64,000 bases of DNA from Bacteroidales bacterium (GCA_035371305.1 DAOOWN010000003.1:2801-66800), one strand, 5' to 3'. Shown: positions 462 to 49,540, counted from the stretch's first letter. The notes: a model not told the origin generated them from the letters alone. A program made the numbers and translations.

Positions 462-3400
462 TTATACAAGCTTGTCTAATTCGTCCAACTGATTGGTTTT
501 ATTAATATTTCTTTTCCGTTTGGCTGTTTCTGTAAAGTATTGATGTTTTCTTATAAATTCGTATTGCATTTTATTCCATGCGTCAACAGAGCGAATTTTT
601 CCACGCTCAAAAAGTTCACGGAATAAGTTTTGCGAGACGGGAATAAAATCACTACGTCCTAAGTAATCCAGATCGGCGTCGCAAATTATTTGCTCTAAGT
701 GGTCTTGGGGGTCGGGTGGAAATTTTGTTGCTAAAATCAACCGACAAATAATGTCAATCTGATCCTGACGATATCCGTATTGTGGCAATATTTCACGAGC
801 AAATCTTACTCCTAATTCTTCGTGATCGTCGTATCCTTTCATAAAGCCGGTATCGTGCAACAAAGCGGCCGTTTTTAATAGCAACAATTCTTCTCTGCTA
901 ACCTTTTCGCCCAGAGCAAGCATTTCAACTTGTGTTATTACGTCAATGGTATGCTTTAAGTCGTGGTAATATAAATTGTTTGGTAATGATTTTTCTAATT
1001 TAAGCAATACAAACTCTTCCAGGTCATCGTATTTTAAGAATTGAAGTTTGAGTCGGAATTTATCATTGGGTTCGTTCGGATTTTCGGGCATTGCCATTTC
1101 TTTTTTTATGCCTTTTACAAAGTACATGTCGATTTCGCCTTTGTGTTTTACCGGTAATTTGCCTCGGTATTCGCATTCAAAATAGTCTTTAATTCTTCCG
1201 TACACATCTCCGGATACGTTTATTTCTCCGGCAACGCTTGACGATTCCATGCGTGAAGCAATGTTAACCGCATCGCCCCATATATCGTACGAGAATTTTT
1301 TGCTTCCAACCACCCCGGCAACTACGGTACCCGAATGAATCCCAACCCTGATTGACCATTGATATTTGAAAATTTCTTTGTTGTTTTTGATGAAATGTTG
1401 CATTTTAAGGGCAGCTAACGTAACGTCAATAGGGTTGGTTCTGTTTTTCTTAGGAACGCCACCGGCACACATATATGCATCGCCAATCGTTTTGATTTTT
1501 TCTACTCCATATTGGTCACAAATGTCGTCGAAATTTTTAAACACCAAGTTTAGTTCGTCTATAAGCATTTCGGGGCTCATTTGCTCTGTAATATGCGTAA
1601 ACCCTTGAACATCGGCAAATAAAACAGAAACCAACGAGTATTTTTTCTTTTCTACAAAGCCATTTTCTTTTAACGATTGAACCGTTTCTTCGGGAAGAAT
1701 ATTGCGAATAAGCTCATCTACTTTTTCTTTTTCTTCGGCAAGTTGTTTAGTTCTAATATTCAGCAAGGTTTCAATATGATGTTTTTCCTGTGCAAAAGAA
1801 TAGGCTCGCCACTGGAAAATCATGAGCACTAAGCTTGCCAATAAAATTATGTATATTAAATATGCATACCATTGCCTGTAAACGGGAGCCAGGATTTTAA
1901 AATGATAAACCATTTCGTTAGAAATCGTACCATATATATTTTTAGCACGAACATGAAAAACATAATTACCTTCAAATAAGTTGGTGTATTCCTTAAATGT
2001 ATTGGTTGTCCAATCTGACCAATTTTTATCGAATCCTTCTAAATAATACTGATATTGAATATTGTTTTTTGCATCAAAATAGGGTGCAATAAAATCGAAA
2101 CGAATATTATGATTTTTATAATTAATAAATACTTGTTCGTCGTTATTTGACCATGTGGATGAGGCTACAATGGTATCGTTACCGGCAATAAATGAAGATA
2201 AAAACAGTGATAATTTGCTGGTGTCTTGTGTTAATTTTTTAGCATCAAAGCGAATTAAACCATCAAATGTGCCAAACCAAGTTACTGCATTTAAATCTGG
2301 AAATATTGATTCTATTGTAAACTCTCTGATAACTTTGAAAGGATTTTTTACAATTTTGTATTGATTCTTTTTTAAATAAAATGCAACACCTGTTTCTTTT
2401 TCATATATTCCTTCTTTTCCGGAACTATACCAAATATTATGATAGTGATCTTCTTTAAGCGGGAAAATCCAGGTTTTTAGATCAGGAATTAAAAATGTGT
2501 CGGCAACAAATGATTTGTTTGCATAATCAAAAAGAAAGGGTCCACTTTGTGTACTGAATAAAACACCTCTTTTTGTTGAATAAACGTCAACCCAACCGAT
2601 ATTTGCAGGGAATCCTTTTCCTGTTTTATAGTGCCCAATGGTTTTAACAGAATACTTTTCCAAATCGATCGAAACATTATAAACTCCATTATAATCTGAG
2701 CCCAGCCAGTAGCTGCCTTGTGCATCTTTAGCAATGGTCCGTGTGTGGTCGAAAAAATCTGTTTTAAGCTGACGAAATATAGGTTTGTTGTTTTTAAATT
2801 CAATGATCCCTAATCCGTTATTAAGGCAAATAACAATTTGTTTGTAAGTTGAATCAATAGCTAAAAAATCTTCAAAAATATGCTCTTTATTTAAAACTTG
2901 TACTTTATCGTTTTTGTCTATAAAATATAATCCATTATCGGTACTTACAAGTAATCCGCTTGGTGTGGCAAGAAGTTTATTACAATCGACCTGAATTTCT
3001 TTTACCAATTTAAACATGTTTCCATGAACGGTTTGCTTTTGAAAATTCGTTTTATCTAAATAGCGAAGCCCTTGTGTAGTAGCAATATAAACCTTATTGT
3101 TAAATCGGCAAATGTCGGAAACGCCACCCTTTACACCATTTACTGTTGAAAAATATGAAAATGCAGAATAGATTTCTATTCTAGAGAGTCCATTATTCAG
3201 TGAAACCCATACGTTGTTCCATTTGTCTATAAATAAGTCATTTATATTGTCATTTAGCAGCAGGTTGTCGGTTGATAACTCAAACAATGCATGCCCTTTT
3301 GTGTTCATGCCAATAATCCCTCCTCTGTGTGTGCCAAAAACATAAACAGAGTCGGGAGTCATGATAAAGCAAGAGTACTGATGTTCGTCTAAATAGTCTT

Positions 3401-4118
3401 CAATTTCATTTGAAAAAGGAACAATTTCTCCCGATTTATTTAATATAAAGATAGATTTTTCGTTCCTAAATTTAATTAAAAATTTGTCGTAATACGGTAT
3501 TAAGAACTCTATAATTTTATTATTGAGTGATTGAGAACTTAGCCACAAAATCATATTGCCATTGGCATATTGATACAATCCACCGGGTTCTTTGAATACA
3601 AAAAGTTTATCGTTGATGGTATATAGCTCCAGTAAATTTGATGTGCTATCGATGACGTTTATATTTCTGCCATTGTATGAATACAAGTAAGAGTAATTTC
3701 CAATAAAAAGGATTTCGTTTCGGTAGCTTATTAAAGAAGAAACATCGCCAATTTTTTCTTTTAAACGTTGTGATGGAACTAAGGAGTGAAATTCGTACTT
3801 GTTTTTTTCGCCTTGTGTTACTATACCAAAGTCTTTGTATAATCCTGCATAAACATTGCCTTTTTTGTCGCTGCAAAGCCTTGGAATACCTTGAGCCGGT
3901 ATCAAGTTCCAGTGAATTCCATCGTATTGAAGAATACCGCTTACATTGCTAATAAAAAAGATTCCTTGATTATTTTGTGTTATAGCAAAATTTTGACTTT
4001 CGTATCCATATGCTTTGGGTGGAATATTTTGAATTAAAGGGAAACCTGTCTCATCAAATTGAGCAAAAAGACGAGCATAGGAAACAATGAAAAATAATAT
4101 TAATAAATATTTTAACAA
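462..4118 (-). CDS. Membrane sensor protein: periplasmic beta-propeller/Y_Y_Y-type repeats, one TM, class III adenylate/guanylate cyclase domain, C-terminal HD phosphohydrolase domain
   Basis: 1218-aa ORF with a signal/anchor MLKYLLILFFIVSYARLFAQ. About 750 aa of propeller-like repeats are followed by the TM YAYLIYIILLASLVLMIF. Cyclase motifs are VLFADVQGFT (about nt 1590-1630), KTIGDAYM and DIWGDAVNIASRME (about nt 1250-1290). HD motifs are HDLKH (about nt 950-970), LLHDTGF (about nt 843-872) and DADLDYLG. Confidence 0.8.
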   Translation of the reverse strand: MLKYLLILFFIVSYARLFAQFDETGFPLIQNIPPKAYGYESQNFAITQNNQGIFFISNVSGILQYDGIHWNLIPAQGIPRLCSDKKGNVYAGLYKDFGIVTQGEKNKYEFHSLVPSQRLKEKIGDVSSLISYRNEILFIGNYSYLYSYNGRNINVIDSTSNLLELYTINDKLFVFKEPGGLYQYANGNMILWLSSQSLNNKIIEFLIPYYDKFLIKFRNEKSIFILNKSGEIVPFSNEIEDYLDEHQYSCFIMTPDSVYVFGTHRGGIIGMNTKGHALFELSTDNLLLNDNINDLFIDKWNNVWVSLNNGLSRIEIYSAFSYFSTVNGVKGGVSDICRFNNKVYIATTQGLRYLDKTNFQKQTVHGNMFKLVKEIQVDCNKLLATPSGLLVSTDNGLYFIDKNDKVQVLNKEHIFEDFLAIDSTYKQIVICLNNGLGIIEFKNNKPIFRQLKTDFFDHTRTIAKDAQGSYWLGSDYNGVYNVSIDLEKYSVKTIGHYKTGKGFPANIGWVDVYSTKRGVLFSTQSGPFLFDYANKSFVADTFLIPDLKTWIFPLKEDHYHNIWYSSGKEGIYEKETGVAFYLKKNQYKIVKNPFKVIREFTIESIFPDLNAVTWFGTFDGLIRFDAKKLTQDTSKLSLFLSSFIAGNDTIVASSTWSNNDEQVFINYKNHNIRFDFIAPYFDAKNNIQYQYYLEGFDKNWSDWTTNTFKEYTNLFEGNYVFHVRAKNIYGTISNEMVYHFKILAPVYRQWYAYLIYIILLASLVLMIFQWRAYSFAQEKHHIETLLNIRTKQLAEEKEKVDELIRNILPEETVQSLKENGFVEKKKYSLVSVLFADVQGFTHITEQMSPEMLIDELNLVFKNFDDICDQYGVEKIKTIGDAYMCAGGVPKKNRTNPIDVTLAALKMQHFIKNNKEIFKYQWSIRVGIHSGTVVAGVVGSKKFSYDIWGDAVNIASRMESSSVAGEINVSGDVYGRIKDYFECEYRGKLPVKHKGEIDMYFVKGIKKEMAMPENPNEPNDKFRLKLQFLKYDDLEEFVLLKLEKSLPNNLYYHDLKHTIDVITQVEMLALGEKVSREELLLLKTAALLHDTGFMKGYDDHEELGVRFAREILPQYGYRQDQIDIICRLILATKFPPDPQDHLEQIICDADLDYLGRSDFIPVSQNLFRELFERGKIRSVDAWNKMQYEFIRKHQYFTETAKRKRNINKTNQLDELDKLV

Positions 4119-6077: not shown

Positions 6078-8249
6078 TTATCGAATAAATAATAGTTCGC
6101 GATATTTAGGAAGAGGCCAATATTGGTTGTCAACAATTAATTCGATCTTATCTGCATGATATCGAATGTTTTCCATATATGGTTTGACCTTTGTTGAATA
6201 CAGCTGAGCTTTTATACGAATATTGCTTTCTGCATTCGCGTTTTTTCGTTCGTTTTCCATTTCATTTTTTAACTTATAAATGGCTTGTGTATGTTCGTTC
6301 AGTTCATTTAATAATTGTTGGTGCATAGCATATTGAGAATCATTAACTTGAAGCATTTTATATTTTGTGATGATGTCGAGCAATAATTGTTCGTATTTTA
6401 GTGATGCAGGGATAATGTGATTATCAATTAGATTTCCTAAAACCCTCGATTCTATTTGAAGTTTTTTAATATAAAATTCAAGGCGTATTTCATACCGAGC
6501 TTCTAATTCGTAATTTTTAAACACCGAATGTTTTTGAAATAATTCGATGCTTTTTGGACTAATGTATGCTTTCAGCGCATCAACAGCAGAGTTTGTTGTA
6601 GATAGTTTTCTTTTTTTAGCCTCATTGAGCCATTCTTTTGAGTAACCATTTCCATCAAATACAACCTTTTTTGATGCAGAAAAGAAGGTTTGAATGGTTT
6701 TTAAAAGCGCCTCTTCTTTTGCTTTTTTTAAGTTAATTTTAAATAGGTTTTCAAATTCTGTCATTTGTTCGGCAACGGCAGTGTTAAGAGCAATAAGAGC
6801 AGCAGCAGGATTGGCAGACGAACCTACAGCTCTAAATTCAAATCGATTGCCGGTAAAAGCAAAGGGTGAGGTGCGATTTCGGTCGGTGTTGTCGAGCAAA
6901 ATCTCGGGAATACTACTAATATCGAGATTTAAAGCCTTTTTGTCCGAAACAGTCATATTGTTTTTTGATACCGTACGTTCAATTTCTTCTAAAACAGACG
7001 AAATGGTTTTACCCAAGAAAACACTTATAATGTTGGGTGGAGCTTCGTTTCCGCCTAAACGGAATTCGTTTCCTAAAGAAGCAACCGCTGCCTTAAGCAA
7101 TTCTGAATGCTCATATACCGCTTTTATAACGATTGCAATAAATGATAAAAATCGTAAATTGCTTTCAGAAGTGTGTCCCGGAGATAGTAAATTTATTCCA
7201 TTCTTCGTCATTAGCGACCAATTGCAATGTTTTCCCGAGCCGTTTATTCCTGAAAAGGGTTTTTCGTGCAATAAGACTTTAAAATTATGTCTTTCGGCAA
7301 CCTTTCGCATAATATCCATTAAAAGAATATTGTGGTCGTTGGCTAAATTTGCCTCTTCGAATATAGAAGCACACTCAAACTGATTGGGTGAAACCTCGTT
7401 ATGTCGTGTCTTTAATGGGATTCCCAATCGCCAAGCTTCTATTTCCAAATCGGACATAAAAGCCTTAACACGTTCCGGAATGCTTGCAAAATAATGATCT
7501 TCGAGTTGTTGGTCTTTTGCTGATGCATGTCCAAGTAAGGTTCTGCCGGTTAGTATAAGATCGAAACGAGCATTGTAAAGCGACTCATCGACCAAGAAAT
7601 ATTCTTGTTCCCAACCAAAAGTAACCGTAGCGTTTTGAGGTTTTTCAAAAAAAATAGAGGTGAGCGAATACGTTGCTTTTTCGATTGCTTTAAGCGATTT
7701 GAGTAGCGGCATCTTAAAATCAAGAGCTTCGCCGGTGAAAGAAATAAAAATGGATGGAATACAGAGCGTTTTGCCAAGAATAAAAGCAGGAGAAGACGGA
7801 TCCCATGCAGTATAGCCCCTTGCTTCGAAAGTGCTGCGAATGCCACCGCTTGGAAAGCTCGATGCATCGGGCTCTTGTTGAACCAGTTTATCACCCGAAA
7901 AATTTTCAATTATAAATCCATCTTTGTCCGGTTCGAAAAAAGTATCGTGTTTTTCGGCACTGGCTTCGTTTAAGGGCTGAAACCAGTGTGTGTAATGCGT
8001 TGCTCCGTTTTCTATTGCCCATGTTTTCATGCCTAAGGCAATTTGGTCTGCAATTTTTCGGGAAATTCGTTCGTTGTTTTCTATAGAATGAAGAATGTGT
8101 TGAAATGCTTCGGATGATAAATATTTCCGCATTTTAGTTTTGTCAAATACACATCTCCCAAATTCTTCGGGGATTGATTTTGTTTGTATTACAGCTATTG
8201 GCTTATGCTTGAACGACTCTTCTAATGAACTAAAACGTAAAGTATTCAT
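6078..8249 (-). CDS. glnN: Glutamine synthetase, type III
   Basis: 723 aa, the size of Bacteroides-type GSIII. GS catalytic motifs are present: NEVSPNQFE and HEKPFSGINGSGKHCNWS. Confidence 0.88.
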   Translation of the reverse strand: MNTLRFSSLEESFKHKPIAVIQTKSIPEEFGRCVFDKTKMRKYLSSEAFQHILHSIENNERISRKIADQIALGMKTWAIENGATHYTHWFQPLNEASAEKHDTFFEPDKDGFIIENFSGDKLVQQEPDASSFPSGGIRSTFEARGYTAWDPSSPAFILGKTLCIPSIFISFTGEALDFKMPLLKSLKAIEKATYSLTSIFFEKPQNATVTFGWEQEYFLVDESLYNARFDLILTGRTLLGHASAKDQQLEDHYFASIPERVKAFMSDLEIEAWRLGIPLKTRHNEVSPNQFECASIFEEANLANDHNILLMDIMRKVAERHNFKVLLHEKPFSGINGSGKHCNWSLMTKNGINLLSPGHTSESNLRFLSFIAIVIKAVYEHSELLKAAVASLGNEFRLGGNEAPPNIISVFLGKTISSVLEEIERTVSKNNMTVSDKKALNLDISSIPEILLDNTDRNRTSPFAFTGNRFEFRAVGSSANPAAALIALNTAVAEQMTEFENLFKINLKKAKEEALLKTIQTFFSASKKVVFDGNGYSKEWLNEAKKRKLSTTNSAVDALKAYISPKSIELFQKHSVFKNYELEARYEIRLEFYIKKLQIESRVLGNLIDNHIIPASLKYEQLLLDIITKYKMLQVNDSQYAMHQQLLNELNEHTQAIYKLKNEMENERKNANAESNIRIKAQLYSTKVKPYMENIRYHADKIELIVDNQYWPLPKYRELLFIR

Positions 8250-23031: not shown

Positions 23032-23039
23032 TAGATTTG
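23032..23039 (+). promoter_or_regulatory. Candidate -7 box (TAnnTTTG) for the RiPP cassette
   Basis: TAGATTTG lies 19 nt upstream of the TTG start at 23058, inside the 53-nt nqrF-to-cassette gap. Confidence 0.35.
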
Positions 23040-23057
23040 TAAAAAATCTTTAACACA

Positions 23058-23936
23058 TTGTATTTCTATAGTGCTTTTGGATTAAATATTGCTTCTGATG
23101 TACCATTAAATAAGCTCATTGCTGCTGGTGAATTAAAGCCCGATGTTGCTTTTTGCTTTGGTAAAGCTGAAGTTGTAATCGATAACCCCATTATTGTAAA
23201 AAAAACGTTTCAGGCAAATCATTTTTCTTTTGCTTATCATGTTGCAGATACACTTTTTTATTTTAATTTTCTAAACAAGAAGTTAATCTTTTCCTATACC
23301 AATAAACAGCAATTCGAACTCTATTTATATGGACCTGTAATTGCCTTAATATCTGCATATTTCGGTAAAATTCCATTACATGCTTCGGGACTTATTGTTC
23401 ACGATAAAACCATATTAATAGCAGGGAATTCCGGTGCCGGAAAATCAACATTATTATTTCACTTTATACAAAATTACCAGGCTCGTTTTTTTTCGGATGA
23501 TATTGTAGTAATGGAAAAAAAAGGCTCCATTATTCAAGCCAATCCATCATTTGCAGAGATTAAACTCTGGCTCGATGCTATAGAACGATTCAATGCCAAT
23601 ATTATAAAACCTGTACACCCGGACATAAAAAAGTATTTTGTTGATGTAAAAAGCTTTTTTATTAACAAAATCCAAATACCACAAGTTGTTTTTATTATAC
23701 AAACAACACAAAATACAACAGCTCAGTTTGAAAAGGTAACGGGAGTTAATAAATTTCTTTATCTAATTAAAAATGTATATCGTAGAAATCATATAGAAAT
23801 TTTATTTAAAAAAAATATATTTGAACTTGTTGCAACATTGGCTAATCAAACACAAGTTTATATACTTCATCGTCCTTTTGCCATTAATAATGAATTGTGG
23901 AATGAATTTGTTGACAGTTGTCTGGAACAAATATGA
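23058..23936 (+). CDS. HPr-kinase-C-like serine kinase of lasso-peptide clusters
   Basis: 292 aa. The N-terminus is MYFYSAFGLNIASDVPL and the Walker A is LIAGNSGAGKST (23424-23450). A TTG start is required because there is no in-frame ATG before residue 152. Confidence 0.65.
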   Translation: MYFYSAFGLNIASDVPLNKLIAAGELKPDVAFCFGKAEVVIDNPIIVKKTFQANHFSFAYHVADTLFYFNFLNKKLIFSYTNKQQFELYLYGPVIALISAYFGKIPLHASGLIVHDKTILIAGNSGAGKSTLLFHFIQNYQARFFSDDIVVMEKKGSIIQANPSFAEIKLWLDAIERFNANIIKPVHPDIKKYFVDVKSFFINKIQIPQVVFIIQTTQNTTAQFEKVTGVNKFLYLIKNVYRRNHIEILFKKNIFELVATLANQTQVYILHRPFAINNELWNEFVDSCLEQI

Positions 23937-24781
23937 TAACTTCATCAAAAAAACATATCATATGGATAGCATCGTATCCAAAGTCAGGAAATACTTGGTT
24001 TAGAATATTTTTAGCTCGTTTTTTATATGGCATACAAAATATAAATGCGATTTCCATTCCTATATATAGTTCAAAAAGCTTTTTGGAGAAGGAAGCCGAT
24101 ATTGATGTAAGTGAATTGTCCGATGTCGATTTGCATCAATTACGATTAGATGTATATGCTAAATACATTTCAAACGAAAGAGATATATTCCCAGTAAAAA
24201 TACACGATTGTTTTCAATATCAGTTTGATTCGATGCCCTTTCTTCCTTTTAATCAATCAAAGGCTGTAGTATATTTGGTAAGAAATCCGTTCGATTTAGC
24301 TGTTTCGTTTTCACGCCATTTAGGAGTTGATATAGATAAAACCATTGCTATAATGAATACTGAAAATTATACGCTCTCCATTCCCTCAAAAAAATACTTA
24401 TCTCAAATGCCTCAATTGCTTAACACATGGTCATCTCATATTAGAGGTTGGCTCCATCAAAAAGAAATTCCTTTATTGCTTGTTAAATACGAAGAATTGA
24501 TAAAGCAACCGCAAAAAGAGTTTGCTCGAATTTTAGACTGTTTAAACATATCGTATTCCGATATGAAATTAAACGATGCCATACAATTTGCTTCATTCGA
24601 AAATCTTTCAAGCCAAGAAAAAAAATATGGATTTCAAGAAAAATCGATACATTCCCATACCTTTTTTCATACCGGAAAAAGTTTTTACTATAAAAATTAT
24701 TTAAACGAAAAGCAAATTAAGACTATCTTTGAACAACACAGTTCCATCATTAAACAATTAGGATATGACTTCGATTTTTAA
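23933..24781 (+). CDS. PAPS-dependent sulfotransferase
   Basis: The ATG overlaps the kinase stop (ATGA, 23933-23936). It has the 5'-PSB loop SYPKSGNTW (23975-23998) and a 3'-PB-like VRNPFD. Confidence 0.7.
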   Translation: MITSSKKHIIWIASYPKSGNTWFRIFLARFLYGIQNINAISIPIYSSKSFLEKEADIDVSELSDVDLHQLRLDVYAKYISNERDIFPVKIHDCFQYQFDSMPFLPFNQSKAVVYLVRNPFDLAVSFSRHLGVDIDKTIAIMNTENYTLSIPSKKYLSQMPQLLNTWSSHIRGWLHQKEIPLLLVKYEELIKQPQKEFARILDCLNISYSDMKLNDAIQFASFENLSSQEKKYGFQEKSIHSHTFFHTGKSFYYKNYLNEKQIKTIFEQHSSIIKQLGYDFDF

Positions 24782-25049
24782 TCCCAATACGATATTTCAA
24801 CGTCAAAAAGAGGTGGTTTTTACATTTTTAGACCATGAAATTATGTTATTAAATCCCCAAACAGGACAATATTATTCGTTTAATAAAGTGGGGGCTTATA
24901 TTTGGGAATTATTAGCAAAACCAACTTCTTATAATGAATTGATAGTAAGCCTTCAAGCTAAATTTGATGTAGAAAAAGAAAAATGCGAAACCGATACCAA
25001 AAAGTTCCTGACATTGTTGCTGGATAAACATTTAATAGAAATAGCATAA
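24765..25049 (+). CDS. PqqD-family RiPP recognition element (lasso B1)
   Basis: 94 aa. The stretch EIMLLNPQTGQYYSFNKVGAYIWELLAKPTSYNELI shows the PqqD-like pattern. It overlaps the sulfotransferase gene by 17 nt. Confidence 0.65.
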   Translation: MTSIFNPNTIFQRQKEVVFTFLDHEIMLLNPQTGQYYSFNKVGAYIWELLAKPTSYNELIVSLQAKFDVEKEKCETDTKKFLTLLLDKHLIEIA

Positions 25050-25052
25050 GAA

Positions 25053-25484
25053 ATGTTCCCGCTTATTAGCAAATATTATAAACTTAATTCAACCGAAAAA
25101 AAAATGTTTTTCGAAGCTTACGTTACGTCTTTTTATGCAAGAATGCTTATTTTATTTTGCTCTTTTAAGCGCTTAGAAAAAAGATTAGGTAAAAAATCAG
25201 CTCAGCTAATGAGTAATGAAAATCAAAACAAGGAGCTTTTGGTTTTAATTAAACGTTCCATCATTAGAGCATCTAAATACAGCTTTTGGCGAAATAAATG
25301 TTTCGAACAATCGCTAACGGCAGCCATTATGTTAAGAAAACGCAAAATTCACTATGTTTTGTACTTAGGTTTAGCCAAAAAAAATAACAAACTTGTTGCC
25401 CATGTTTGGATGGAGAGTCAAGGTTACTTTTTGGTAAATAAAGGAAATACAGAGTTTACAACACTATCAACTTTTTACGCATAG
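25053..25484 (+). CDS. Lasso peptide B2 leader protease (transglutaminase-core-3 / McjB C-terminal-like)
   Basis: 143 aa. Cys83 sits in NKCFEQSLTAAIMLRKRKI (TGT at 25299) and His117 in LVAHVWMESQGY (CAT at 25401). Confidence 0.65.
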   Translation: MFPLISKYYKLNSTEKKMFFEAYVTSFYARMLILFCSFKRLEKRLGKKSAQLMSNENQNKELLVLIKRSIIRASKYSFWRNKCFEQSLTAAIMLRKRKIHYVLYLGLAKKNNKLVAHVWMESQGYFLVNKGNTEFTTLSTFYA

Positions 25485-25485
25485 T

Positions 25486-27288
25486 ATGTATTGGGTAGCC
25501 GGATATATTTCAAACAATGCCGATGAAATTTCAGTTAAGGAAGTTTTCGCAAATATAAGCCCGTATGGTGCTAAATCGTCATTCATTATTAATGAAAGCC
25601 CGTTAAGCTTAATTTTTTATTCACAAAAAGAAGAGGTTTTTCAAAAAAACAAAAATTTTTATTTTGAAGATGAGGAACAAAAATGTTTTGTCATAGCTCA
25701 TTTACATAATCGATCCTCTTTACTCAGTCAACTTGATTTAAGCTCTTCTGCTCACGATACAGAAATAATGTATATTTTATACAAAAGAAAGGGAATAGAG
25801 GGCTTAAAAAAATGTTATGGAAAGTGGATGTTTTTGTCCTTTGATAAAAAACAGAATACATATACGATTATTCGCGATCATTTAGGAATGTTTAATTACT
25901 ATTATAGCATTGTTAATAATTCGTTTTTCTTCTCAACCAATATTGAATGGCTGTTTCGGTTTAAACCGATAAACAAAGAAATAAACCCAATGCAATTAGC
26001 CGGACTTGCAGTTGGTTTTTCTGGAAATCCCTATGAAACAACATATAAAAATGTGTTTAAAATTCCACCTGCCCATTATGTAGAATTTACCGAAAGTAAA
26101 TCGGACTCTTACATGTATTGGTATCCTAAAATGGAGACATCTCTTATGTATAAGAGCCAAGACGATTACTATCAACATTTTGTAGAGCTTTTTACAAATA
26201 TTATAAACGAGAGTTTGAAAAATGCAGATACTATTGCAAGTACATTAAGCAGTGGGTTAGACTCTACATTTGTTACAGCAATTGCAGCAGACGTTTTAAA
26301 AAAACAAAATAAATCTTTAACGGCTATTACTGCCTCACCCAAATATGCGGATGTTGCTCCGAAATCTCCTTATCGTTATTCAGACGAGATACCATTGGCA
26401 GAACTGGTTGCTAAAAAATATCCAAATATTCGGCATTTAATAGATAAAGCTACAGAAACAGATCCCATTAATGGTCTTATAAAATCTATTGAAGTTCATC
26501 TCAATCCTGTTCGTAACGCAGGGAATCAATATTGGATATTTTCGATGCTCGAAAAACTAAAAGAAAATAAAGTGGATACTTTATTGATTGGGCAAATGGG
26601 AAACCTGACCTATTCATGGCCTTTTTTCAACCCCATTGATGTTAAATCGCAGTTAAAGAAAAAAATTAAAAAAATTCTTTTTCAAAGTCAGCCATTTTAT
26701 ATTAAAAACAGTTATTTAGCCTCTTCGTTTGTAAAGAAAAACCATGTTGTAAGCTATTTAAAAAAATTAAATTATAAGCCTGATTTACATTCAAGCGATT
26801 TGGGAGTGATGCGCAATCACTTTTTTCAACAGATGCAGAGTGTTGGTTATTCTGCTTGGAACGAGAAAGCAAATTATTATGGAATAAATGTTATTGATCC
26901 TACGGCAGATGTAAGGTTAATCGAATATTGCTTTTCTATTCCTCCATCACTTTTTAAAAATGAAAATGGAAACAGGCAGTTCATTCGTCATGCTGCAAAA
27001 GATATTGTTCCAAATGAAATTTTGTCTAATCAAAAGAAAGCAATTCAATCTGCGGATGCGGGCAAAAGAGTATTAGAAGTATATCATGACTACAACCATC
27101 TTTTAAACCAAGCATTTAATAATTCATTAACAACAGAATTGTTTGATACAGATATGTTAATAAAAACAGTTGAAAGCAATAAGTTTTCAACTCACGTATT
27201 TTTACGCTCCCTGTTGATTATTTTATTTATTTATTTTGCAACTAATAATTCAGATTTTCGTACAAACAAAGAAATATTACTCATATGA
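25486..27288 (+). CDS. Asparagine-synthetase-like lasso cyclase (McjC-like)
   Basis: 600 aa with the PP-loop SSGLDS (26248-26265). The N-terminus MYWVAGY lacks the Cys2 glutaminase nucleophile of true AsnB. Confidence 0.65.
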   Translation: MYWVAGYISNNADEISVKEVFANISPYGAKSSFIINESPLSLIFYSQKEEVFQKNKNFYFEDEEQKCFVIAHLHNRSSLLSQLDLSSSAHDTEIMYILYKRKGIEGLKKCYGKWMFLSFDKKQNTYTIIRDHLGMFNYYYSIVNNSFFFSTNIEWLFRFKPINKEINPMQLAGLAVGFSGNPYETTYKNVFKIPPAHYVEFTESKSDSYMYWYPKMETSLMYKSQDDYYQHFVELFTNIINESLKNADTIASTLSSGLDSTFVTAIAADVLKKQNKSLTAITASPKYADVAPKSPYRYSDEIPLAELVAKKYPNIRHLIDKATETDPINGLIKSIEVHLNPVRNAGNQYWIFSMLEKLKENKVDTLLIGQMGNLTYSWPFFNPIDVKSQLKKKIKKILFQSQPFYIKNSYLASSFVKKNHVVSYLKKLNYKPDLHSSDLGVMRNHFFQQMQSVGYSAWNEKANYYGINVIDPTADVRLIEYCFSIPPSLFKNENGNRQFIRHAAKDIVPNEILSNQKKAIQSADAGKRVLEVYHDYNHLLNQAFNNSLTTELFDTDMLIKTVESNKFSTHVFLRSLLIILFIYFATNNSDFRTNKEILLI

Positions 27289-29882
27289 GAAAACTATATA
27301 TTCTTTTAGCCCTTTTATTTGTGAGCACAAGCTGTGTTTTTTCACAAACATATTTATGGAAAAAACATTTTACCGGAACAGGTCAAAATGTCCCATTGCT
27401 TATGGTAAATGATAATAGTGGTAACATTTACATAGCCGGAAATTTTAATGGTTCCATTACGCACGATTCGTATAGTTTTACAACCAATGGCTTGCAAGAC
27501 ATGTTTTTGGCAAAATATTCTTCCTCCGGCTCTATTATTTGGATAAAACAATTAGGTGGTGCCGGTACCGAAAATATCTATGGCTTAGCATTAAGTCCTG
27601 ACCAAAAATATGTGTACATCGGTTTTACATTTAACGGAACTACCGATATTGACGGATGGCAACTTTCGGCAGAAGGAAACGACGTTGCTGTTGCTAAATT
27701 TACTAATCTGGGAGAATTGGATATGGTTTTCCCTATTGCAACCGGTGCAGAGCATCAAATAAACGGAAATCTTTCTATTGATGCTGAAAACAACGTATTA
27801 GTGTTGATTAATTTTATAAATCAAGCCGATATTGCCGGGGGTGTAGAAAAATGTTTTGCAAATGAATATTCAAATCGTCAAAATGTGTTGGTCAAAACCG
27901 ACGAATGGGGAAATTATATATGGCACCGCATGTTTGAAACAACCTCTTCGTTAACGTACTTTAGAACAGTTACAACTTTTGGTAACGATATTTATATTTC
28001 CGGTGTTTTTTCAAGTTCCGTTTCTTTTTTAAATCAAACTGTTAATAGTTCAAACACCCAAAGAGATGGTATTTTGGTGAAATTAAACAGTAATGGCGAA
28101 GATCAGTGGGCAAGACGAATAATGGGTGTCGGAAACGACATTTTTATTTATCGTCATAGTTTTGATAATAATGGAAACATTTATGTAGCAGGTTATTTTA
28201 AATGCAGCCAATTATCCTTAGATTCAACGGATACAAATCTTTCTAGATTAAATCCAACTAATACAAGTACAAATAATGATATGCTCTTGGCAAAATACAA
28301 TACCGACGGGACATTACAATGGGTAAAAACAAAGGGCAGCAGCGGTGACGATAAACTTTATAATATTGTTGCAACTACATCTAATTATGCTGCGGTGGGC
28401 TCGTATGGCGGCCCCATAAGCGATTTGAATTTGACGCAAAAGGGGTTAATTGATGCGTGCATCCTTATGGGGAATGCAACAACAGGACAAATAAATTCAG
28501 CATCGGCTGCCAAAGGAACATTGAATGATTATGCTTGGGCTTGTTTAATAAGCTCAACAGGAAGAAGTTATCATTATATGGGCGAGTTTGCATCGAGCAA
28601 ATTATATTTTGGCTCAGATTCTTTAATAAATGCTCGAGTGAATTACCGCGATGGATTTTTGTTTAAAGTTGGCTGTTTTGACGATATTGTTTTTACTGCT
28701 TCAAATGTATCTTGTCCAGGCGGAAGCAATGGAAGTATAACAGCTACACCCACTACCGGCAATGAACCATATACATATGCTTGGTCAACCGGGGCTACCA
28801 CACAAACAATCAGCAATTTAACTGCGGGTACATATAGCGTTACGGTTAGCGGGTCAAATGGATGTACGCTTACAAAATCATATAATTTAACAGAAAATCC
28901 GGGACTTTCAAGTACTTATACCAAAACGGATCCATGTCCGGGAGGAACGGATGGCAGTATTACTGCATATCCACAAAATGGCAATCCTCCTTATACCTAT
29001 CTTTGGTCGTATCAGAGCAAAACTACACAAACAATAACCGGCTTGCCTGCAAACACTTACTATTGCACCATTCGTGATGCATGTCCTGCTTCGGTTGTGA
29101 TTACTGTTACTTTAGCTAATCCTCCTGCTTTAGCCATAACATTAAGTTCTACTCCTTCAAGTTATTGTACTACAACTAATTCCGGTTCGGTAACGGTAAG
29201 TCCTTCAGGTGGCCGCCCTCCTTATTCGTATGTATGGAGAAAAAGCTCCCCAACTGGTACTATTGTTGGATATACTCAAACCGTTTATAATTTAGGGCAG
29301 GCTACATATTATGCTTCTGTAACTGACGGATGTAATGCAACAAAAACTGGTTCTGTTGGAGTTGGGAAAAAGGCATATACATTAACCCCAAGTAGCAACT
29401 GTACTCAGCCAGGTCAATGTACCGGTTGGGCACAAATAGATGTTAGTGCTGGCGATCCTCCATACACATACTTATGGAGCGATCCGGCTCATCAAACCAC
29501 TCAAAGAGCTGTTGGTTTATGTTATAGCACCTTAGGATATACGGTTACGGTTACCGACAATTATAATTGCACTAAAATATATCCAAGTATTAGAATTTAT
29601 AATTGCTCAAAATCGCCCATTGAAGAACCTGTTGATATTAATGTGTCTGTTTTTCCAAATCCGGCTAACAACTTTTTACATGTGTTTATTAATTCCGAAG
29701 AAAACCCGTATCATAGCATTGAATTATATAATGCTGCCGGTCAATTAGTTTTTGAAAAACCATTGACAAATGAAGAAAACGAAATAAATATTAATACTAC
29801 AAAATGGTTAGAAGGAGTATATATGATACGAATGGTGGGCAATGAAAACGTATATTCTAAAACTTTTGTAATAAAACGTTAA
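27285..29882 (+). CDS. Large secreted protein: SBBP-like beta-propeller repeats, SprB-type repeats, T9SS type A C-terminal domain
   Basis: 865 aa with signal peptide MRKLYILLALLFVSTSCVFSQ. Repeated N.YI.G.F.G motifs are followed by five C.G..GSIT....G..PYTY.W modules. The C-terminal domain is VSVFPNPANNFLHV...GVYMIRMVGNENVYSKTFVIKR. The ATG overlaps the cyclase stop (ATGA, 27285-27288). Confidence 0.75.
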   Translation: MRKLYILLALLFVSTSCVFSQTYLWKKHFTGTGQNVPLLMVNDNSGNIYIAGNFNGSITHDSYSFTTNGLQDMFLAKYSSSGSIIWIKQLGGAGTENIYGLALSPDQKYVYIGFTFNGTTDIDGWQLSAEGNDVAVAKFTNLGELDMVFPIATGAEHQINGNLSIDAENNVLVLINFINQADIAGGVEKCFANEYSNRQNVLVKTDEWGNYIWHRMFETTSSLTYFRTVTTFGNDIYISGVFSSSVSFLNQTVNSSNTQRDGILVKLNSNGEDQWARRIMGVGNDIFIYRHSFDNNGNIYVAGYFKCSQLSLDSTDTNLSRLNPTNTSTNNDMLLAKYNTDGTLQWVKTKGSSGDDKLYNIVATTSNYAAVGSYGGPISDLNLTQKGLIDACILMGNATTGQINSASAAKGTLNDYAWACLISSTGRSYHYMGEFASSKLYFGSDSLINARVNYRDGFLFKVGCFDDIVFTASNVSCPGGSNGSITATPTTGNEPYTYAWSTGATTQTISNLTAGTYSVTVSGSNGCTLTKSYNLTENPGLSSTYTKTDPCPGGTDGSITAYPQNGNPPYTYLWSYQSKTTQTITGLPANTYYCTIRDACPASVVITVTLANPPALAITLSSTPSSYCTTTNSGSVTVSPSGGRPPYSYVWRKSSPTGTIVGYTQTVYNLGQATYYASVTDGCNATKTGSVGVGKKAYTLTPSSNCTQPGQCTGWAQIDVSAGDPPYTYLWSDPAHQTTQRAVGLCYSTLGYTVTVTDNYNCTKIYPSIRIYNCSKSPIEEPVDINVSVFPNPANNFLHVFINSEENPYHSIELYNAAGQLVFEKPLTNEENEININTTKWLEGVYMIRMVGNENVYSKTFVIKR
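28690..29590 (+). repeat. Coding tandem repeats (about 5 SprB-type modules of about 70-75 aa)
   Basis: Recurrent CPGG(S/T)(N/D)GSITA.P..GN.PYTY.WS....TQTI..L.A.TY module in the translated sequence. Confidence 0.7.
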
Positions 29883-29912: not shown

Positions 29913-29920
29913 TACCTTTG
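29913..29920 (+). promoter_or_regulatory. Candidate -7 box (TAnnTTTG) with upstream TTTG (-33-like) for rpmH
   Basis: TACCTTTG lies 26 nt upstream of the rpmH ATG. A TTTTG at 29888-29892 sits about 20 nt upstream of the box. Confidence 0.5.
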
Positions 29921-29946: not shown

Positions 29947-30102
29947 ATGAAAAGAACATTTCAACCTTCGAATCGTCGTCGTAAAAATAAACATGGTTTC
30001 CGCGAACGCATGTCAACACACAATGGTCGCAGAGTATTAGCTGCTCGTCGTGCAAAAGGACGTAAAAAATTAACCGTAAGCGATGAATTAAAAGGAAAAT
30101 AA
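29947..30102 (+). CDS. rpmH: 50S ribosomal protein L34
   Basis: Hand translation gives [51 protein letters not shown] (51 aa). This is the classic L34 sequence. It falls below the ORF-track length cut-off. Confidence 0.93.
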
Positions 30103-30126: not shown

Positions 30127-30164
30127 AAAAGTAAAGGGTACATTTGTATCCTTTACTTTTTTGT
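30127..30164 (+). terminator. Rho-independent terminator after rpmH
   Basis: 10-bp stem GTAAAGGGTA / TATCCTTTAC (one G-U pair), 6-nt loop, then a T-tract. Confidence 0.7.
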
Positions 30165-45546: not shown

Positions 45547-45661
45547 CGATTTGATTTAGTGAATGGTTATTGGGGACAACCATTATTAAGACGTAGTAAA
45601 TAAATGAAAGGTTGCTTAAATAGTTGTTAATATTTTGTACTTTAGCAAAATAAATTTATCG

Positions 45662-46915
45662 ATGTTTCGAATAAATAAAATAGGAACCCAATTTGCCGAA
45701 AACATTAAAATTGCTTCGCAAAGCTTAAAAGTCAATAAGCTAAGAGCTATTTTAACCATACTTATTATAGCCATTGGTATTATGGCATTAGTAGGTATTT
45801 TGACTTCAATCGAAGCAATCCGAAGCTCGCTGAATTCGAATTTTTCGAGCTTAGGAAGCAATACTTTCCGAATTACAAGTTGGTCAATGCGTCAAGGAGG
45901 TGGAGATAGAGAAAGAATAGAATATAAAGATATTTCATACAGAGAAGCGTGCGATTTTAAAGAACGCTACAAATTTCCTTCTACAATAGCCATTTCCATG
46001 CGAGGCTCACAGCAAGCAGTTATTAAGTATAAATCGAAAAAAAGCAACCCAAATATTTCCATTATAGGTGTTGACGAGAATTATTTTGCTGTTTCCGGTT
46101 ATGAAATTGAACAAGGCCGAAATTTCTCTTTTCAGGAGGTAATGCAAGGTTCCTTTGTAGTAATAATTGGCAAAGAAATACAGACAACCATGTTTCCTGC
46201 CAACGAGAATCCCATAGGCAAGAAGATTCTGATTGGAAATGGTCGTTATACAGTAATCGGAATTTTAAAATCAAAGGGAAGTAACTTTGGCGGTGGTGGC
46301 GATAAAATTTGTTTCGTGCCAATTCAAAATGCACGTTCTCAACAAAGTAGCTCGAGTCTTACTTTTACAATAAACATTATGCCACAGAACCCCGAATACT
46401 TAGATCAAGCTATTTCCGAAGCCGAAGGAATGTTTAGGATAATTAGAAAATTAAGAGCCAGTGAGGAGAATAATTTTGAGATATCTAAAAGCGACAGTCT
46501 TGTTAATATGTTAATGGACAATATAAAATATGTTACCATAGCAGCTACTCTGATTGGTATCATTACATTAATCGGAGCCTCCATCGGTTTAATGAATATT
46601 ATGTTGGTTTCGGTAACTGAACGAACACGCGAAATCGGTACACGTAAAGCAATGGGGGCAACGCCCTCTATCATTCGTCAGCAATTCTTATTCGAAGCCA
46701 TATATATTGGTCAACTGGGCGGGATTTTAGGTATTATTTTAGGAATAATAATAGGGAATTTAATTGCATTGCTTATTGACGGTCCCTTTGTAATACCGTG
46801 GCTATGGGTAATCGGAGGTGTTGTTTTGTGCTTTCTGGTTAGTATTGCTTCCGGATATATTCCGGCAAATAAGGCAGCAAAACTCGACCCAATAGATGCT
46901 TTGAGGTACGAGTAA
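45662..46915 (+). CDS. ABC transporter permease, MacB/FtsX family
   Basis: ATG at 45662. It has an N-terminal TM, a periplasmic MacB-like domain and a C-terminal FtsX region (ERTREIGTRKAMGATPSIIRQQFLFEA). No cognate ATPase gene is adjacent. Confidence 0.75.
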   Translation: MFRINKIGTQFAENIKIASQSLKVNKLRAILTILIIAIGIMALVGILTSIEAIRSSLNSNFSSLGSNTFRITSWSMRQGGGDRERIEYKDISYREACDFKERYKFPSTIAISMRGSQQAVIKYKSKKSNPNISIIGVDENYFAVSGYEIEQGRNFSFQEVMQGSFVVIIGKEIQTTMFPANENPIGKKILIGNGRYTVIGILKSKGSNFGGGGDKICFVPIQNARSQQSSSSLTFTINIMPQNPEYLDQAISEAEGMFRIIRKLRASEENNFEISKSDSLVNMLMDNIKYVTIAATLIGIITLIGASIGLMNIMLVSVTERTREIGTRKAMGATPSIIRQQFLFEAIYIGQLGGILGIILGIIIGNLIALLIDGPFVIPWLWVIGGVVLCFLVSIASGYIPANKAAKLDPIDALRYE

Positions 46916-47068: not shown

Positions 47069-47236
47069 ATGAAAGATAAGAAATGCTTGAAATGTCCTTT
47101 GTTTTTTGTATGTGATGGCGGTTGTCAATGGATGCGTATAGAAAATTTTAAAAAAAATGAAGAACAGCATTTTTGCCATTTAGCAAAAAACAATATGAAA
47201 AAATATTTAAGTTTGTACCATCAAATTAAAATGTAA
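47069..47236 (+). pseudogene. Remnant (C-terminal ~55 aa) of a radical SAM/SPASM-domain peptide-maturase-type gene
   Basis: Hand translation gives MKDKKCLKCPLFFVCDGGCQWMRIENFKKNEEQHFCHLAKNNMKKYLSLYHQIKM. CLKCPLFFVCDGGC matches the SPASM CX2CX5CX3C motif exactly. The ATG abuts a terminator T-tract, and there is an in-frame stop 16 codons upstream. Confidence 0.5.
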
Positions 47237-47245
47237 ACTTAAAAA

Positions 47246-49540
47246 ATGCGATTATTATTATCTGTCTTATTTTTAACAATTAACGTACAACTTATCTCGC
47301 AAATATCTACGTTTAAAGGAAAAGTTATAAACGTTAAAACGAAAGAATCGTTAAATTTAGTAAATATTATTGCTAAAAATAATGAAAAAGTTATTGCCGG
47401 AACAACAACAAATGACAAAGGAGAGTATGAACTTGTTGTGCCGAGAGGCACTTCAATAGTTTTATGTTTTTATTGCTTAGGATATAAAGATACTTGCATA
47501 AGCATAATTGCAAATAAAGAGTTTATAGATCAAACGATTTTAATGGAAGAAAAAAATATAATTCTAAACGAAATTACGATCAACGAAACCATTAAAACAA
47601 CTGAAATAAAAGACCAAAAATTAATATTAAATATTCAGAATACAACATTGAAAGAAACGGAATCGTTAAAAGATGTTTTAAAATATTTGCCCGGAGCAAT
47701 TGTAAATGATAATGGCATAGAATTTTTTGGTAAAGGCGTGCCAATTATTTTACTTAATGGAAAACAAATTAATCAAGATTATTTATTTAGCGTACTAAAG
47801 CCCGAGGATATAAAAAACATTGAACTTATGAACTCATCAGCAAAATACGACGCTTCTGTACAAAAAATTATCAATATAAATACGATTAAAAAACACGATA
47901 ATTTTGGAGTAAGAATTTATAGTAGAGTAGAAAAACACGAAAATATTTTTAGTAATAAAAATTATGCAAGTGCTTTCCTTTCTTATAAAAAAATAAGCCA
48001 ATTTATTAAATATAGCAATGGTTTTAGTCGTTCGCCCTGGTATGAAAACAGCAATATAAAACTTTATTTACCAAATGATTCCGTTTTTAGAAATGATTTT
48101 TCTTTAAATTCAATTGATTACAACAACAATCATTCACTGTTTTATTCGTTTGATTACAATTTAAATAAGCATCACAACATCACCATACAAGCAACAGGAA
48201 GCCAAAGCAACGATAGTTCTATTACAAGCATAGAAAGTAAAATGAATAATATTTCTGGCTCAAGCCACATATCCGAATTTACAAAACCAAAAAATGTTGG
48301 AATTACATTAAATTATGATTATGCGTACGATTCACTAATAAATGTTTTGATTGCTGCAGACCATTTTTTACAAAATAATATATTAAAAAACAATATTTTA
48401 TTTAATAACAATGCCTCTTCGGGGAATAATACCTCTGATTATGTTATAAGCTCTTTAAAAGCAGATTTTATTTATTCAATAAAAAAAATTGGAGCAAATG
48501 TAAATTTGGGTACTCAACATGTATTTGTTAAAAACAATTATGTGAATTCTTTTACAACACCTGATTCTATTAGTAGTCTATTATTTAACAATCAAAACAA
48601 AATGAATGAGGTTAATCAAGCTTATTATATTATGCTAGATAATTTTACCATTAATAACATTTCATTTTCAATGGGTGTGCGATACGAAAACTATGAGCGA
48701 AAAACAGCATCTAATTCTATTGACACAACCAAGCAGAGTTTTGATGATCATTATTTTTATCCATCTATATCTGCAACGATTCCCTTTTCTGAAAACGTTC
48801 AATGGCAAGTTTCATATTCAACTAACATCAATAGACAAGCTTATGATTTAATGAACAATAATAATTTTTATATAAACCCCTATTTATATCGATTAGGAAA
48901 TCCTTTTTTAAAGCCCACAGTTGGCAGATCCATTTCGTCAATTTTAAATATTGGAAATATTGTTTTTGAAGTTGGTTATACTTCATATACAAATTATGCT
49001 ACAATGTTTTTTAACACAAAAGATAGTTTGTTAATGGCATATTATGACAATTGCAAAAAAAAGGAAATTCTTTCCAGTATTAATTATACAATACAAAATG
49101 ATAAACTCTATTCATATCTAAATTTTGGCATTCTTAAACCGATTTTTCAATACGAATATCAACAAAAAATAATGAATGCGAAACTTGTACAATTTATGTT
49201 CAACTTTTATAATTCCTACAGTTTAAATGATAATACCATATTTTCGTTGAATTTTAATTATAACTCTAAATATCAGCAAGACTTATTTTTAAATAAACCA
49301 ACATATACAATTGAAGCGAATTTTTATAAATTTTTCTTTAATAAGAGACTTCGTTTATCATTCTTTACAAACTTTAATCAAATAGAGTATTATACGCTAC
49401 AGTATAAAAATATCGACATGCAACATGAGTATAAACGAAATTATTTATATATAGGAGCAAGTTTATTGTTTAAAATAAATAAGGACATTAATGTGCAAAC
49501 GAAATCAGCTATAGAAGAAGAAAAATCAAGAATAAGATAA
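47246..49540 (+). CDS. Outer-membrane beta-barrel protein with CarboxypepD_reg-like N-terminal domain (TonB-dependent-receptor-like)
   Basis: 764 aa. After the signal peptide comes FKGKVINVKTKESLNLVNIIAKNN...GEYELVVPRG, then a long N/Y/S-rich region with alternating strands. The gene is markedly AT-rich. Confidence 0.55.
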   Translation: MRLLLSVLFLTINVQLISQISTFKGKVINVKTKESLNLVNIIAKNNEKVIAGTTTNDKGEYELVVPRGTSIVLCFYCLGYKDTCISIIANKEFIDQTILMEEKNIILNEITINETIKTTEIKDQKLILNIQNTTLKETESLKDVLKYLPGAIVNDNGIEFFGKGVPIILLNGKQINQDYLFSVLKPEDIKNIELMNSSAKYDASVQKIININTIKKHDNFGVRIYSRVEKHENIFSNKNYASAFLSYKKISQFIKYSNGFSRSPWYENSNIKLYLPNDSVFRNDFSLNSIDYNNNHSLFYSFDYNLNKHHNITIQATGSQSNDSSITSIESKMNNISGSSHISEFTKPKNVGITLNYDYAYDSLINVLIAADHFLQNNILKNNILFNNNASSGNNTSDYVISSLKADFIYSIKKIGANVNLGTQHVFVKNNYVNSFTTPDSISSLLFNNQNKMNEVNQAYYIMLDNFTINNISFSMGVRYENYERKTASNSIDTTKQSFDDHYFYPSISATIPFSENVQWQVSYSTNINRQAYDLMNNNNFYINPYLYRLGNPFLKPTVGRSISSILNIGNIVFEVGYTSYTNYATMFFNTKDSLLMAYYDNCKKKEILSSINYTIQNDKLYSYLNFGILKPIFQYEYQQKIMNAKLVQFMFNFYNSYSLNDNTIFSLNFNYNSKYQQDLFLNKPTYTIEANFYKFFFNKRLRLSFFTNFNQIEYYTLQYKNIDMQHEYKRNYLYIGASLLFKINKDINVQTKSAIEEEKSRIR

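Follow-up and report, generated by a model that had tools for sequence, protein, structure and literature searches.

Where does a lasso-peptide operon find its substrate if neither a precursor nor an exporter is encoded with it? The question is raised by a 64,000-nucleotide stretch of DNA from the Bacteroidales bacterium GCA_035371305.1 (hereafter the window; one strand, with positions counted from its first letter). In this window, five open reading frames (ORFs), all on the + strand and spanning 23058-27288, encode in order a kinase, a sulfotransferase, a PqqD-fold protein (B1), a transglutaminase-like protease (B2) and an Asn-synthetase-like cyclase. The explanation favored here, and considered fairly probable, is that they belong to a functional maturation operon of the split-B lasso type, a system for peptides that are made by the ribosome and modified after translation (RiPPs), which is chromosomally fixed in a small Bacteroidales clade and acts on a precursor encoded in trans.

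A preliminary description of the window had reported five packed, same-strand genes at 23032-27288, and ORF translation reproduces the packing exactly, with an ATGA overlap at 23933-23936, a 17-nucleotide overlap at 24765-24781, and then gaps of 3 and 1 nucleotides. The motif coordinates quoted there (Walker A, the phosphosulfate-binding (PSB) loop, Cys83, His117 and SSGLDS) agree arithmetically with the translations, and the observation of the cassette is confirmed. Both ends of the unit, however, had to be moved. Position 23032 is not a start codon; its frame runs into a TAA at 23040-23042, and TTG at 23058 is the earliest start codon. By chance, the quoted start coincides with the first base of a Bacteroidetes-type -7 promoter box (TAGATTTG, 23032-23039, + strand), which lies 19 nucleotides before the kinase start and is conserved in position. 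At the other end, the operon had been cut short at 27288: the next gene (27285-29882) overlaps the cyclase stop codon by ATGA, which gives a unit of six genes. Because four of the five cassette proteins score above curated Pfam thresholds, and because the arrangement recurs in 11 further distinct loci, it exceeds what would be expected by chance.

The first gene (23058-23936, + strand) encodes a 292-residue P-loop protein of the HprK/PEPCK fold, a predicted tailoring kinase, with the Walker A motif GNSGAGKST at residues 123-131 (23424-23450). The AlphaFold (AF2) model, based on 33 homologues, has a predicted local distance difference test score of 94.8, and a Foldseek search with this model returned PEPCK (1oen, 3e-8) and HprK/P (1kkl, 1.4e-6), each with a probability of 1.00, at template modeling scores of just 0.3-0.6. 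Residues H108, G128-K129-S130 and D147-D148 are invariant across the 33 homologues, which include full-length Bacillus and Paenibacillus proteins (24-27% identity) annotated as 'aldolase'. Matches to the NCBIfam models HprK_rel_A (28.6 bits), HprK_rel_B and ScmC are weak, and the score on the bona fide HprK model TIGR00679 is 21.5 against a cut-off of 240. Features shared with HprK/P and PEPCK are the fold, a Walker A motif of the form GxSGxGKS(T), the DD motif and the conserved His; unlike that of HprK/P, the context of the window kinase is of the RiPP type and not one of carbon catabolite control. The earlier assignment as an HPr-kinase-C-like protein is thus upheld by the fold, the invariant catalytic motifs and the Bacillus and Paenibacillus homologues, with a Pfam score that is below threshold (vide infra).

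The second gene (23933-24781, + strand) encodes a 282-residue sulfotransferase of the type dependent on 3'-phosphoadenosine 5'-phosphosulfate (PAPS), a predicted tailoring enzyme with the PSB loop YPKSGNTW at 23975-23998. The assignment, also made previously, holds on the Pfam Sulfotransfer_1 model (75.8, cut-off 22), and the closest PDB sequence matches are to SULT1C3 (5e-10) and the glycopeptide sulfotransferases StaL, Teg12 and Teg14 (about 1e-9). The protein is 34% identical to the sulfotransferases of two precursor-bearing clusters, L011 and L093, that are described below. An alternative-frame ORF of 42-57 residues lies within the 3' end of the sulfotransferase gene in four of eight loci (24576-24704, + strand, in the window, and also in L002, L003 and L009). 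As a candidate precursor it was rejected; it is without lasso features and probably does no more than mirror the conserved coding sequence in which it lies.

The preliminary description had staked its lasso assignment on three Pfam models, and all are matched above their gathering thresholds: PqqD (68.2, cut-off 23.4), Transglut_core3 (58.2, cut-off 26) and Asn_synthase (75.8, cut-off 21). The PqqD-fold protein, a 94-residue B1-type RiPP recognition element (24765-25049, + strand), has as its best NCBIfam model the Bacillus-type lasso_PqqD_Bac, at 70.9, slightly under the cut-off of 80. Its closest PDB structures are lasso B1 chaperones, namely 9x90_B (6e-12), TbiB1 (5v1u, 7e-11) and also TfuB1. 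The 143-residue B2 transglutaminase-like leader protease (25053-25484, + strand) passes the NCBIfam model lasso_biosyn_B2 (75.8, cut-off 33). Cys83 (codon at 25299) and His117 (25401) are two of just four invariant columns across nine B2 homologues; a lack of such conservation had been named in the preliminary description as grounds for rejection, and the B2 assignment survives that check.

The fifth gene (25486-27288, + strand) encodes the predicted Asn-synthetase-like macrolactam cyclase of 600 residues, for which lass_lactam_cya is the best NCBIfam match. In its PP-loop, SSGLDS (26248-26265), residues L254, S255, G257, D259 and S260 are invariant. A housekeeping AsnB with unrelated neighbors would also produce the Pfam Asn_synthase match, the additional GATase_7 match and the weak PDB sequence matches to AsnB and CarA. 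However, the N-terminus of the window protein is MYWVAG, without Cys2, and Cys2 is lacking in 13 of 13 aligned homologues. The score on the AsnB model TIGR01536 is 125, under the cut-off of 267.1 and below the lasso cyclase score, and the gene is tightly packed with those for B1 and B2 in 12 loci. The AsnB reading is refuted by the absence of the glutaminase nucleophile. The best NCBIfam match, the missing Cys2 and the position beside B1 and B2 all fit the original call of a lasso-type cyclase, at a score far under the cut-off of the lasso cyclase model.

About 20 proteins, all of them from uncultured Bacteroidales, are closely related to the cyclase, and gene neighborhoods were read for 12 distinct loci (the window and 11 others). 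Metagenome-assembled genomes of the clade include GCA_013314715.1, GCA_026417155.1 and GCA_054680515.1. As far as the contigs can be read, all loci keep the five genes intact and in one order; the contigs of L012 and L092 end inside the cassette. In every locus the cassette is followed by a gene for an SprB/Por_Secre_tail protein of about 860 residues, a cargo of the type IX secretion system (T9SS), and then by rpmH, with a CofH/MqnC-like radical SAM gene after rpmH wherever the contig reaches that far. The gene upstream of the cassette varies, with at least six contexts: nqrF, a MORN-repeat gene, a transposase fragment, an acetyltransferase gene, an L-PSP gene and a gene for another T9SS protein. 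A distribution scan with the SprB-type protein as query, covering one genome per GTDB species (185,579 species), found six SprB-type orthologues, all six with the cassette directly upstream, although the L012 contig shows the 3' end of the cyclase gene alone.

Across the clade, identity to the window protein is 76-100% for L34, 53-94% for DUF5723, 47-89% for the T9SS protein and 35-68% for the cyclase. The ratio of nonsynonymous to synonymous substitution rates (dN/dS) for the cassette falls at 0.13-0.23 when a 93%-identical relative is the reference and at 0.10-0.19 with L005 in that place, compared with 0.015-0.09 for housekeeping neighbors. Values of 0.10-0.23 indicate purifying selection on the cassette, and an enzyme set that is both conserved and under selection is probably active. 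The cassette looks like a vertically inherited, functional trait of a small uncultured Bacteroidales clade and not like a recently acquired or decaying island. An orphaned lasso cluster remnant, decaying and without function after the loss of its precursor and exporter, would account for the failure to find either of these and for the cassette evolving faster than its neighbors (the cyclase as compared with the T9SS protein). Such a remnant is disfavored as highly improbable: the genes are intact, their lengths and catalytic residues are conserved over deep divergence, dN/dS is that of purifying selection, and 10 of 11 loci have retained an upstream promoter box.

This box, TAnnTTTG, lies 17-38 nucleotides upstream of the kinase start in those 10 of the 11 clade loci, though the upstream genes differ. 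The motif is not enriched in the window (109 occurrences, 106.6 expected), and so it is the conserved position of the box, not the frequency of the motif, that supports a kinase promoter. The same box is found 28-35 nucleotides upstream of rpmH in 11 of 11 loci, but within 120 nucleotides upstream of the T9SS gene in just 3 of 11. The start of the T9SS gene overlaps the cyclase stop codon (ATGA) in the window, L003, L005 and L092, with gaps of about 10-40 nucleotides in the other loci. In the window, the boundary at rpmH on the + strand comprises a -7 box of its own at 29913-29920, the gene for L34 at 29947-30102 and, as terminator, a 15-bp hairpin at 30127-30160. Given the box positions, the tight junction and the hairpin after rpmH, the transcription unit most likely runs from the kinase gene through the T9SS gene, six genes in all, as read from sequence features. 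The position of this hairpin, with its T-run, right after rpmH also suggests that the ORF listed from TTG 30107 starts at ATG 30170. A sigma-70 promoter scan of the window was uninformative for Bacteroidetes, and an Rfam scan of the window detected no RNA family.

The identity and conservation of the five enzymes, the selection acting on them and the structure of the operon are matters of observation. The chemistry of the cassette and the location of a precursor elsewhere in the genome are what we infer from them. Both the 64-kb window and the sequence available around the 11 other loci were searched for a precursor. The gaps that flank the conserved block (53 nucleotides before the kinase gene and 64 before rpmH) leave no room for a precursor gene.

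Several results weigh against a functional lasso operon with its precursor in trans. In six-frame scans for YxxPxL...T-x-[GASC]x(5-7)[DE] and the looser [WYF]xxPx[ILVMF]xx[LIVMF], the L011 peptide alone was matched. Comparison of alternative-frame ORFs inside the cassette across eight loci yielded no precursor, and clustering of all small ORFs from the 12 loci recovered L34 and PqqD as the only conserved families, again with no precursor. A profile hidden Markov model built on three related precursors gave E = 18 as its best window match when all stop-to-stop segments were scanned; against collections of 5.8 billion and 1.84 billion proteins it gave 4 and 7 matches, respectively, none traceable to the clade. 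The conserved block contains no ABC (ATP-binding cassette) exporter and no isopeptidase; a nucleotidyltransferase is likewise not found in it. The kinase scores 22.4 bits on Pfam Hpr_kinase_C, under the gathering score of 33.3, and the 162.6 bits of the cyclase on lass_lactam_cya are far under the cut-off of 525. The third position of the B2 triad (residue 129) varies between N, E and S, and no product has been observed.

Two further candidates for a substrate were discarded. P0200, a repeat protein resembling adhesins, was matched by the precursor profile by chance, and L34 is a ribosomal protein without Asp/Glu at positions 7-9 after any plausible cleavage site. The nearest ABC-type gene encodes a MacB/FtsX permease (45635-46915), 18 kb away, and is not seen beside the cassette in other loci. 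When compared with split-B lasso clusters, the window has B1 and B2, but no precursor with a B1-binding leader motif, Thr at -2 and Asp/Glu at core position 7-9 was found in it or around the 11 other loci. When compared with paeninodin-type clusters, the HprK-homologous kinase is there, but a Ser-ending precursor and a clustered ABC exporter are not. The preliminary description had spoken of a complete maturation set for a tailored lasso peptide; this is borne out for the enzymes but not for the product, given that no precursor gene was found in the window or in the available sequence of the clade loci, and no exporter gene either. Membership as a complete lasso gene cluster fails for lack of a precursor, unless one is encoded in trans. 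Since enzymes under selection must have a substrate, a precursor in trans is the simplest reading.

The nearest relatives outside the clade bear on what such a precursor would look like. These are L011, L093, L094 and L095, all of them lasso clusters, and three of the four have a PadeA-like precursor beside the enzymes. (L095 was the one useful locus of seven from a metagenome scan with the kinase alignment, which was swamped by the generic Walker A pattern.) The L011 precursor reads ...KTWNAPEIRELD...TTTS. That of L093 (...KKEWTAPDLEIIDIESKTLATTTGSGGDGTQSYS) reaches 26.4 on NCBIfam lasso_PadeA_fam, the model of the paeninodin family, for which the cut-off is 27. The L094 precursor, of 47 residues (MKIEENTEKKLYSPPDFYILDFKETLNGDEF..., containing ...KKLYSPPDFYILDFKETLNGDEFQEDED...), is encoded between B2 and a T9SS gene. 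By analogy with these nearest precursor-keeping clusters, the trans precursor is probably PadeA-like, with a leader of the form [WY]xxP[DE][LIF]xx[LI]D...T-x.

L011 and L093, both of them metagenomic, resemble the window in having kinase, sulfotransferase and PqqD genes in the same order, with products 28-38% identical to those of the window; their precursors end in Ser, like the substrates of paeninodin-type kinases. They differ in the adjacent precursor and in having no T9SS neighbor in the available sequence, and L011 additionally has an ABC exporter and a nucleotidyltransferase. In L093 (1-10818), three sulfotransferases (one fused to tetratricopeptide repeats), an acetyltransferase, the kinase, PqqD and the cyclase surround the PadeA-like precursor. 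This unusually heavy set of tailoring enzymes adjoins three genes with phage-tail-collar domains. Paeninodin and pseudomycoidin clusters of Firmicutes contain precursor A, kinase K, B1, B2, C and ABC exporter D, and in some of them a sulfotransferase and a nucleotidyltransferase occur as well. Like them, the window has split B1 and B2 proteins, an Asn-synthetase-like cyclase, an HprK-like kinase and a Sulfotransfer_1 protein near the start of the cluster. Unlike them, it lies in a Bacteroidales host, without precursor, ABC exporter or nucleotidyltransferase, and its cassette is inherited vertically across a clade instead of being scattered, and is apparently co-transcribed with a T9SS surface protein. 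A more distant relative of the cyclase (32% identical) is the AsnB-like protein of L010 (7001-10248), which is accompanied by a TauD dioxygenase gene and small ORFs of 43 and 72 residues, without PqqD or B2, and which may belong to a different peptide-modifying system.

L094, from the Bacteroidales metagenome-assembled genome GCA_016926375.1, encodes a nucleotidyltransferase, cyclase, kinase, PqqD, B2, precursor, T9SS beta-propeller/SprB protein and PorP/SprF protein. It comes from the same taxonomic order as the window and, like it, encodes a kinase (29% identical), PqqD (34%), a B2 with Cys and His, a cyclase and, immediately afterwards, a T9SS protein. It differs in having kept its precursor and in having a nucleotidyltransferase, no sulfotransferase and a cyclase gene on the opposite strand. 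Its B2-like protein, a 147-residue ORF at 6931-7374 (+ strand) with the Cys and His motifs, had not been called by the gene caller of the source. It misses Pfam Transglut_core3 at E <= 0.001, which shows that a Bacteroidales lasso B2 can escape standard annotation.

The sixth gene of the window operon (27285-29882, + strand) encodes an apparently co-transcribed T9SS cargo of 865 residues, in which an SBBP-type beta-propeller at about residues 22-465 is combined with four SprB repeats and, at the C-terminus, a type-A sorting domain (Pfam SprB 87.9; Por_Secre_tail 52.9, cut-off 27; TIGR04183 48.4, cut-off 23). An alignment of eight orthologues shows a hydrophobic N-terminus of variable sequence that ends in FSQ, a putative Sec signal peptide. 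A signal peptide together with Por_Secre_tail is what defines type-A cargo, and both can be recognized here. The gene adjoins the cassette in 12 of 12 loci, and its product is better conserved than the cassette.

The 1350-residue T9SS protein of L094 is collinear with that of the window (26% identity over 790 residues from residue 1, E 2e-46), with a sorting domain of type B (CHU_C) and a PorP/SprF partner, whereas the window protein is of type A. The stop codon of the L094 precursor overlaps the start of this gene, and the PorP/SprF gene follows. The recurrence of a T9SS neighbor in a cluster whose kinase is merely 29% identical suggests a functional link between lasso genes and the T9SS protein. 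The link is held loosely, since T9SS cargo is common, since only two lineages are involved, and since 74 remote beta-propeller/SprB loci in GTDB include none with lasso genes nearby. The last result also indicates that the link is not a general property of the beta-propeller family. Cargo genes are frequent in the genome, and account for 3 of about 46 genes in the window, a background of about 5% per flank. A second SprB-repeat cargo, of 1079 residues (59806-63956, - strand), has a type-B CHU_C domain and a PorP/SprF partner gene; it has the repeats and a sorting domain in common with the 27285-29882 protein, but not the beta-propeller.

The T9SS surface protein of the operon may be a functional partner of the peptide, as a hypothesis only. 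The more specific proposal is that the lasso-type machinery, instead of being a sporadic antibiotic cluster, forms an operon inherited vertically throughout the lineage, with one or more trans precursors as its substrates and a product acting with the T9SS surface protein, for example as ligand, cofactor or cargo; this is conceivable, if on balance rather unlikely. The relationship could also be that of enzyme and substrate. In that case the cassette would act on something non-canonical such as T9SS cargo, and the chemistry would perhaps be phosphorylation, sulfation or a protein isopeptide instead of a lasso. The absence of a precursor near the cassette in 12 loci, the T9SS gene that is always adjacent and apparently co-transcribed, and the same T9SS architecture after the distant lasso cluster L094 are all consistent with this idea. 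Its likelihood is nevertheless judged to be low. The T9SS signal peptide is ordinary and variable, without Asp/Glu at mature positions 7-9, and leader removal by B2 would destroy the export signal. Moreover, L094 has a normal precursor besides its T9SS gene, and cargo genes are common. The N-terminus of the T9SS protein had been tried as a precursor and was rejected as an ordinary signal peptide lacking the acidic residue (PMC13056109), and the T9SS pre-protein is unlikely to be a lasso substrate.

An explanation outside RiPP biology has also been considered. NCBIfam/TIGRFAM models associate sets of HprK-related kinases, PqqD-like proteins and AsnB-like amidotransferases with XrtA/PEP-CTERM exopolysaccharide loci; a relative of such a set might modify a surface polymer to which the T9SS protein attaches. 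The weak matches of the kinase to HprK_rel_A (28.6 bits) and of the cyclase to eps_aminotran_1 (76 bits), the presence of a surface protein within the operon and the missing precursor are compatible with this. Against it, B2 passes a lasso-specific model (75.8 vs 33), and the score on the lasso cyclase model is double that on the exopolysaccharide amidotransferase model (162.6 vs 76). In addition, lasso B1 structures are the closest matches to the PqqD protein, the nearest relatives have precursors in their clusters, and no glycosyltransferase or polysaccharide-export genes are found nearby. There is very little probability that this is the correct explanation.

If the cassette is a lasso maturation operon supplied in trans, its chemistry can be outlined from characterized systems. 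The B1 PqqD-type protein would bind the leader of the precursor peptide. The HprK-like kinase would phosphorylate a hydroxyl of the still-linear precursor, and the PAPS-dependent sulfotransferase would add sulfate. The B2 Cys/His protease would then cut off the leader, and the cyclase would adenylate an Asp/Glu side chain at core position 7-9 and close the macrolactam onto the new N-terminus. Export of the product must rely on something other than a clustered ABC pump.

Two features elsewhere in the window are also of note. A 55-residue Cys-rich ORF (47069-47236, + strand; MKDKKCLKCPLFFVCDGGCQW...) has a SPASM-like CxxC...CDGGC appearance and no Pfam match at E <= 0.001. It lies in a low-GC stretch at 46-50 kb (GC down to 26%), just upstream of a gene for a CarboxypepD_reg/TonB-type outer-membrane protein (47246-49540). 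At 462-4118 (- strand), a 1218-residue protein combines Y_Y_Y, adenylate/guanylate cyclase and HD domains.

The gene set itself is of a known kind. Lasso clusters of Firmicutes with an HPr-kinase homologue, a sulfotransferase at the cluster start and a nucleotidyltransferase have already been described, and their kinases phosphorylate the C-terminal Ser of the linear precursor (PMC4289311, PMC8498205); the pairing of kinase and sulfotransferase is therefore already known from that phylum. As for the sulfotransferase, a 2021 review still called its role in lasso clusters 'putative' (PMC8498205). Predicted lasso clusters are on record for Bacteroidota, but the lasso peptides with solved structures are from three other phyla only (PMC12214591), which agrees with the statement in the preliminary description that no lasso peptide is known to have been isolated from Bacteroidota. 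A putative lasso cluster is known in Amoebophilus (PMC8831229). Among Bacteroidales, lasso-type genes are a great rarity: a BAGEL4 survey of 1,136 Bacteroidales genomes reported a single LasC area (PMC10352776). In the literature searched, no paper names both lasso peptides and type IX secretion. New here are vertical inheritance across a Bacteroidales clade and an operonic T9SS protein, along with the absence of both a cis precursor and an exporter.

The conserved enzyme set could be used to test the sulfation and phosphorylation of lasso peptides. Alongside the location of the substrate, the locus raises the question of why lasso genes are accompanied by a T9SS surface protein in two Bacteroidales lineages that are only distantly related. 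Should the T9SS link be real, RiPP chemistry would be connected to type IX secretion, and if the surface protein is indeed the partner of the peptide, this would be a lasso peptide with a part in cell-surface biology, leaving the cell with no ABC pump dedicated to it.

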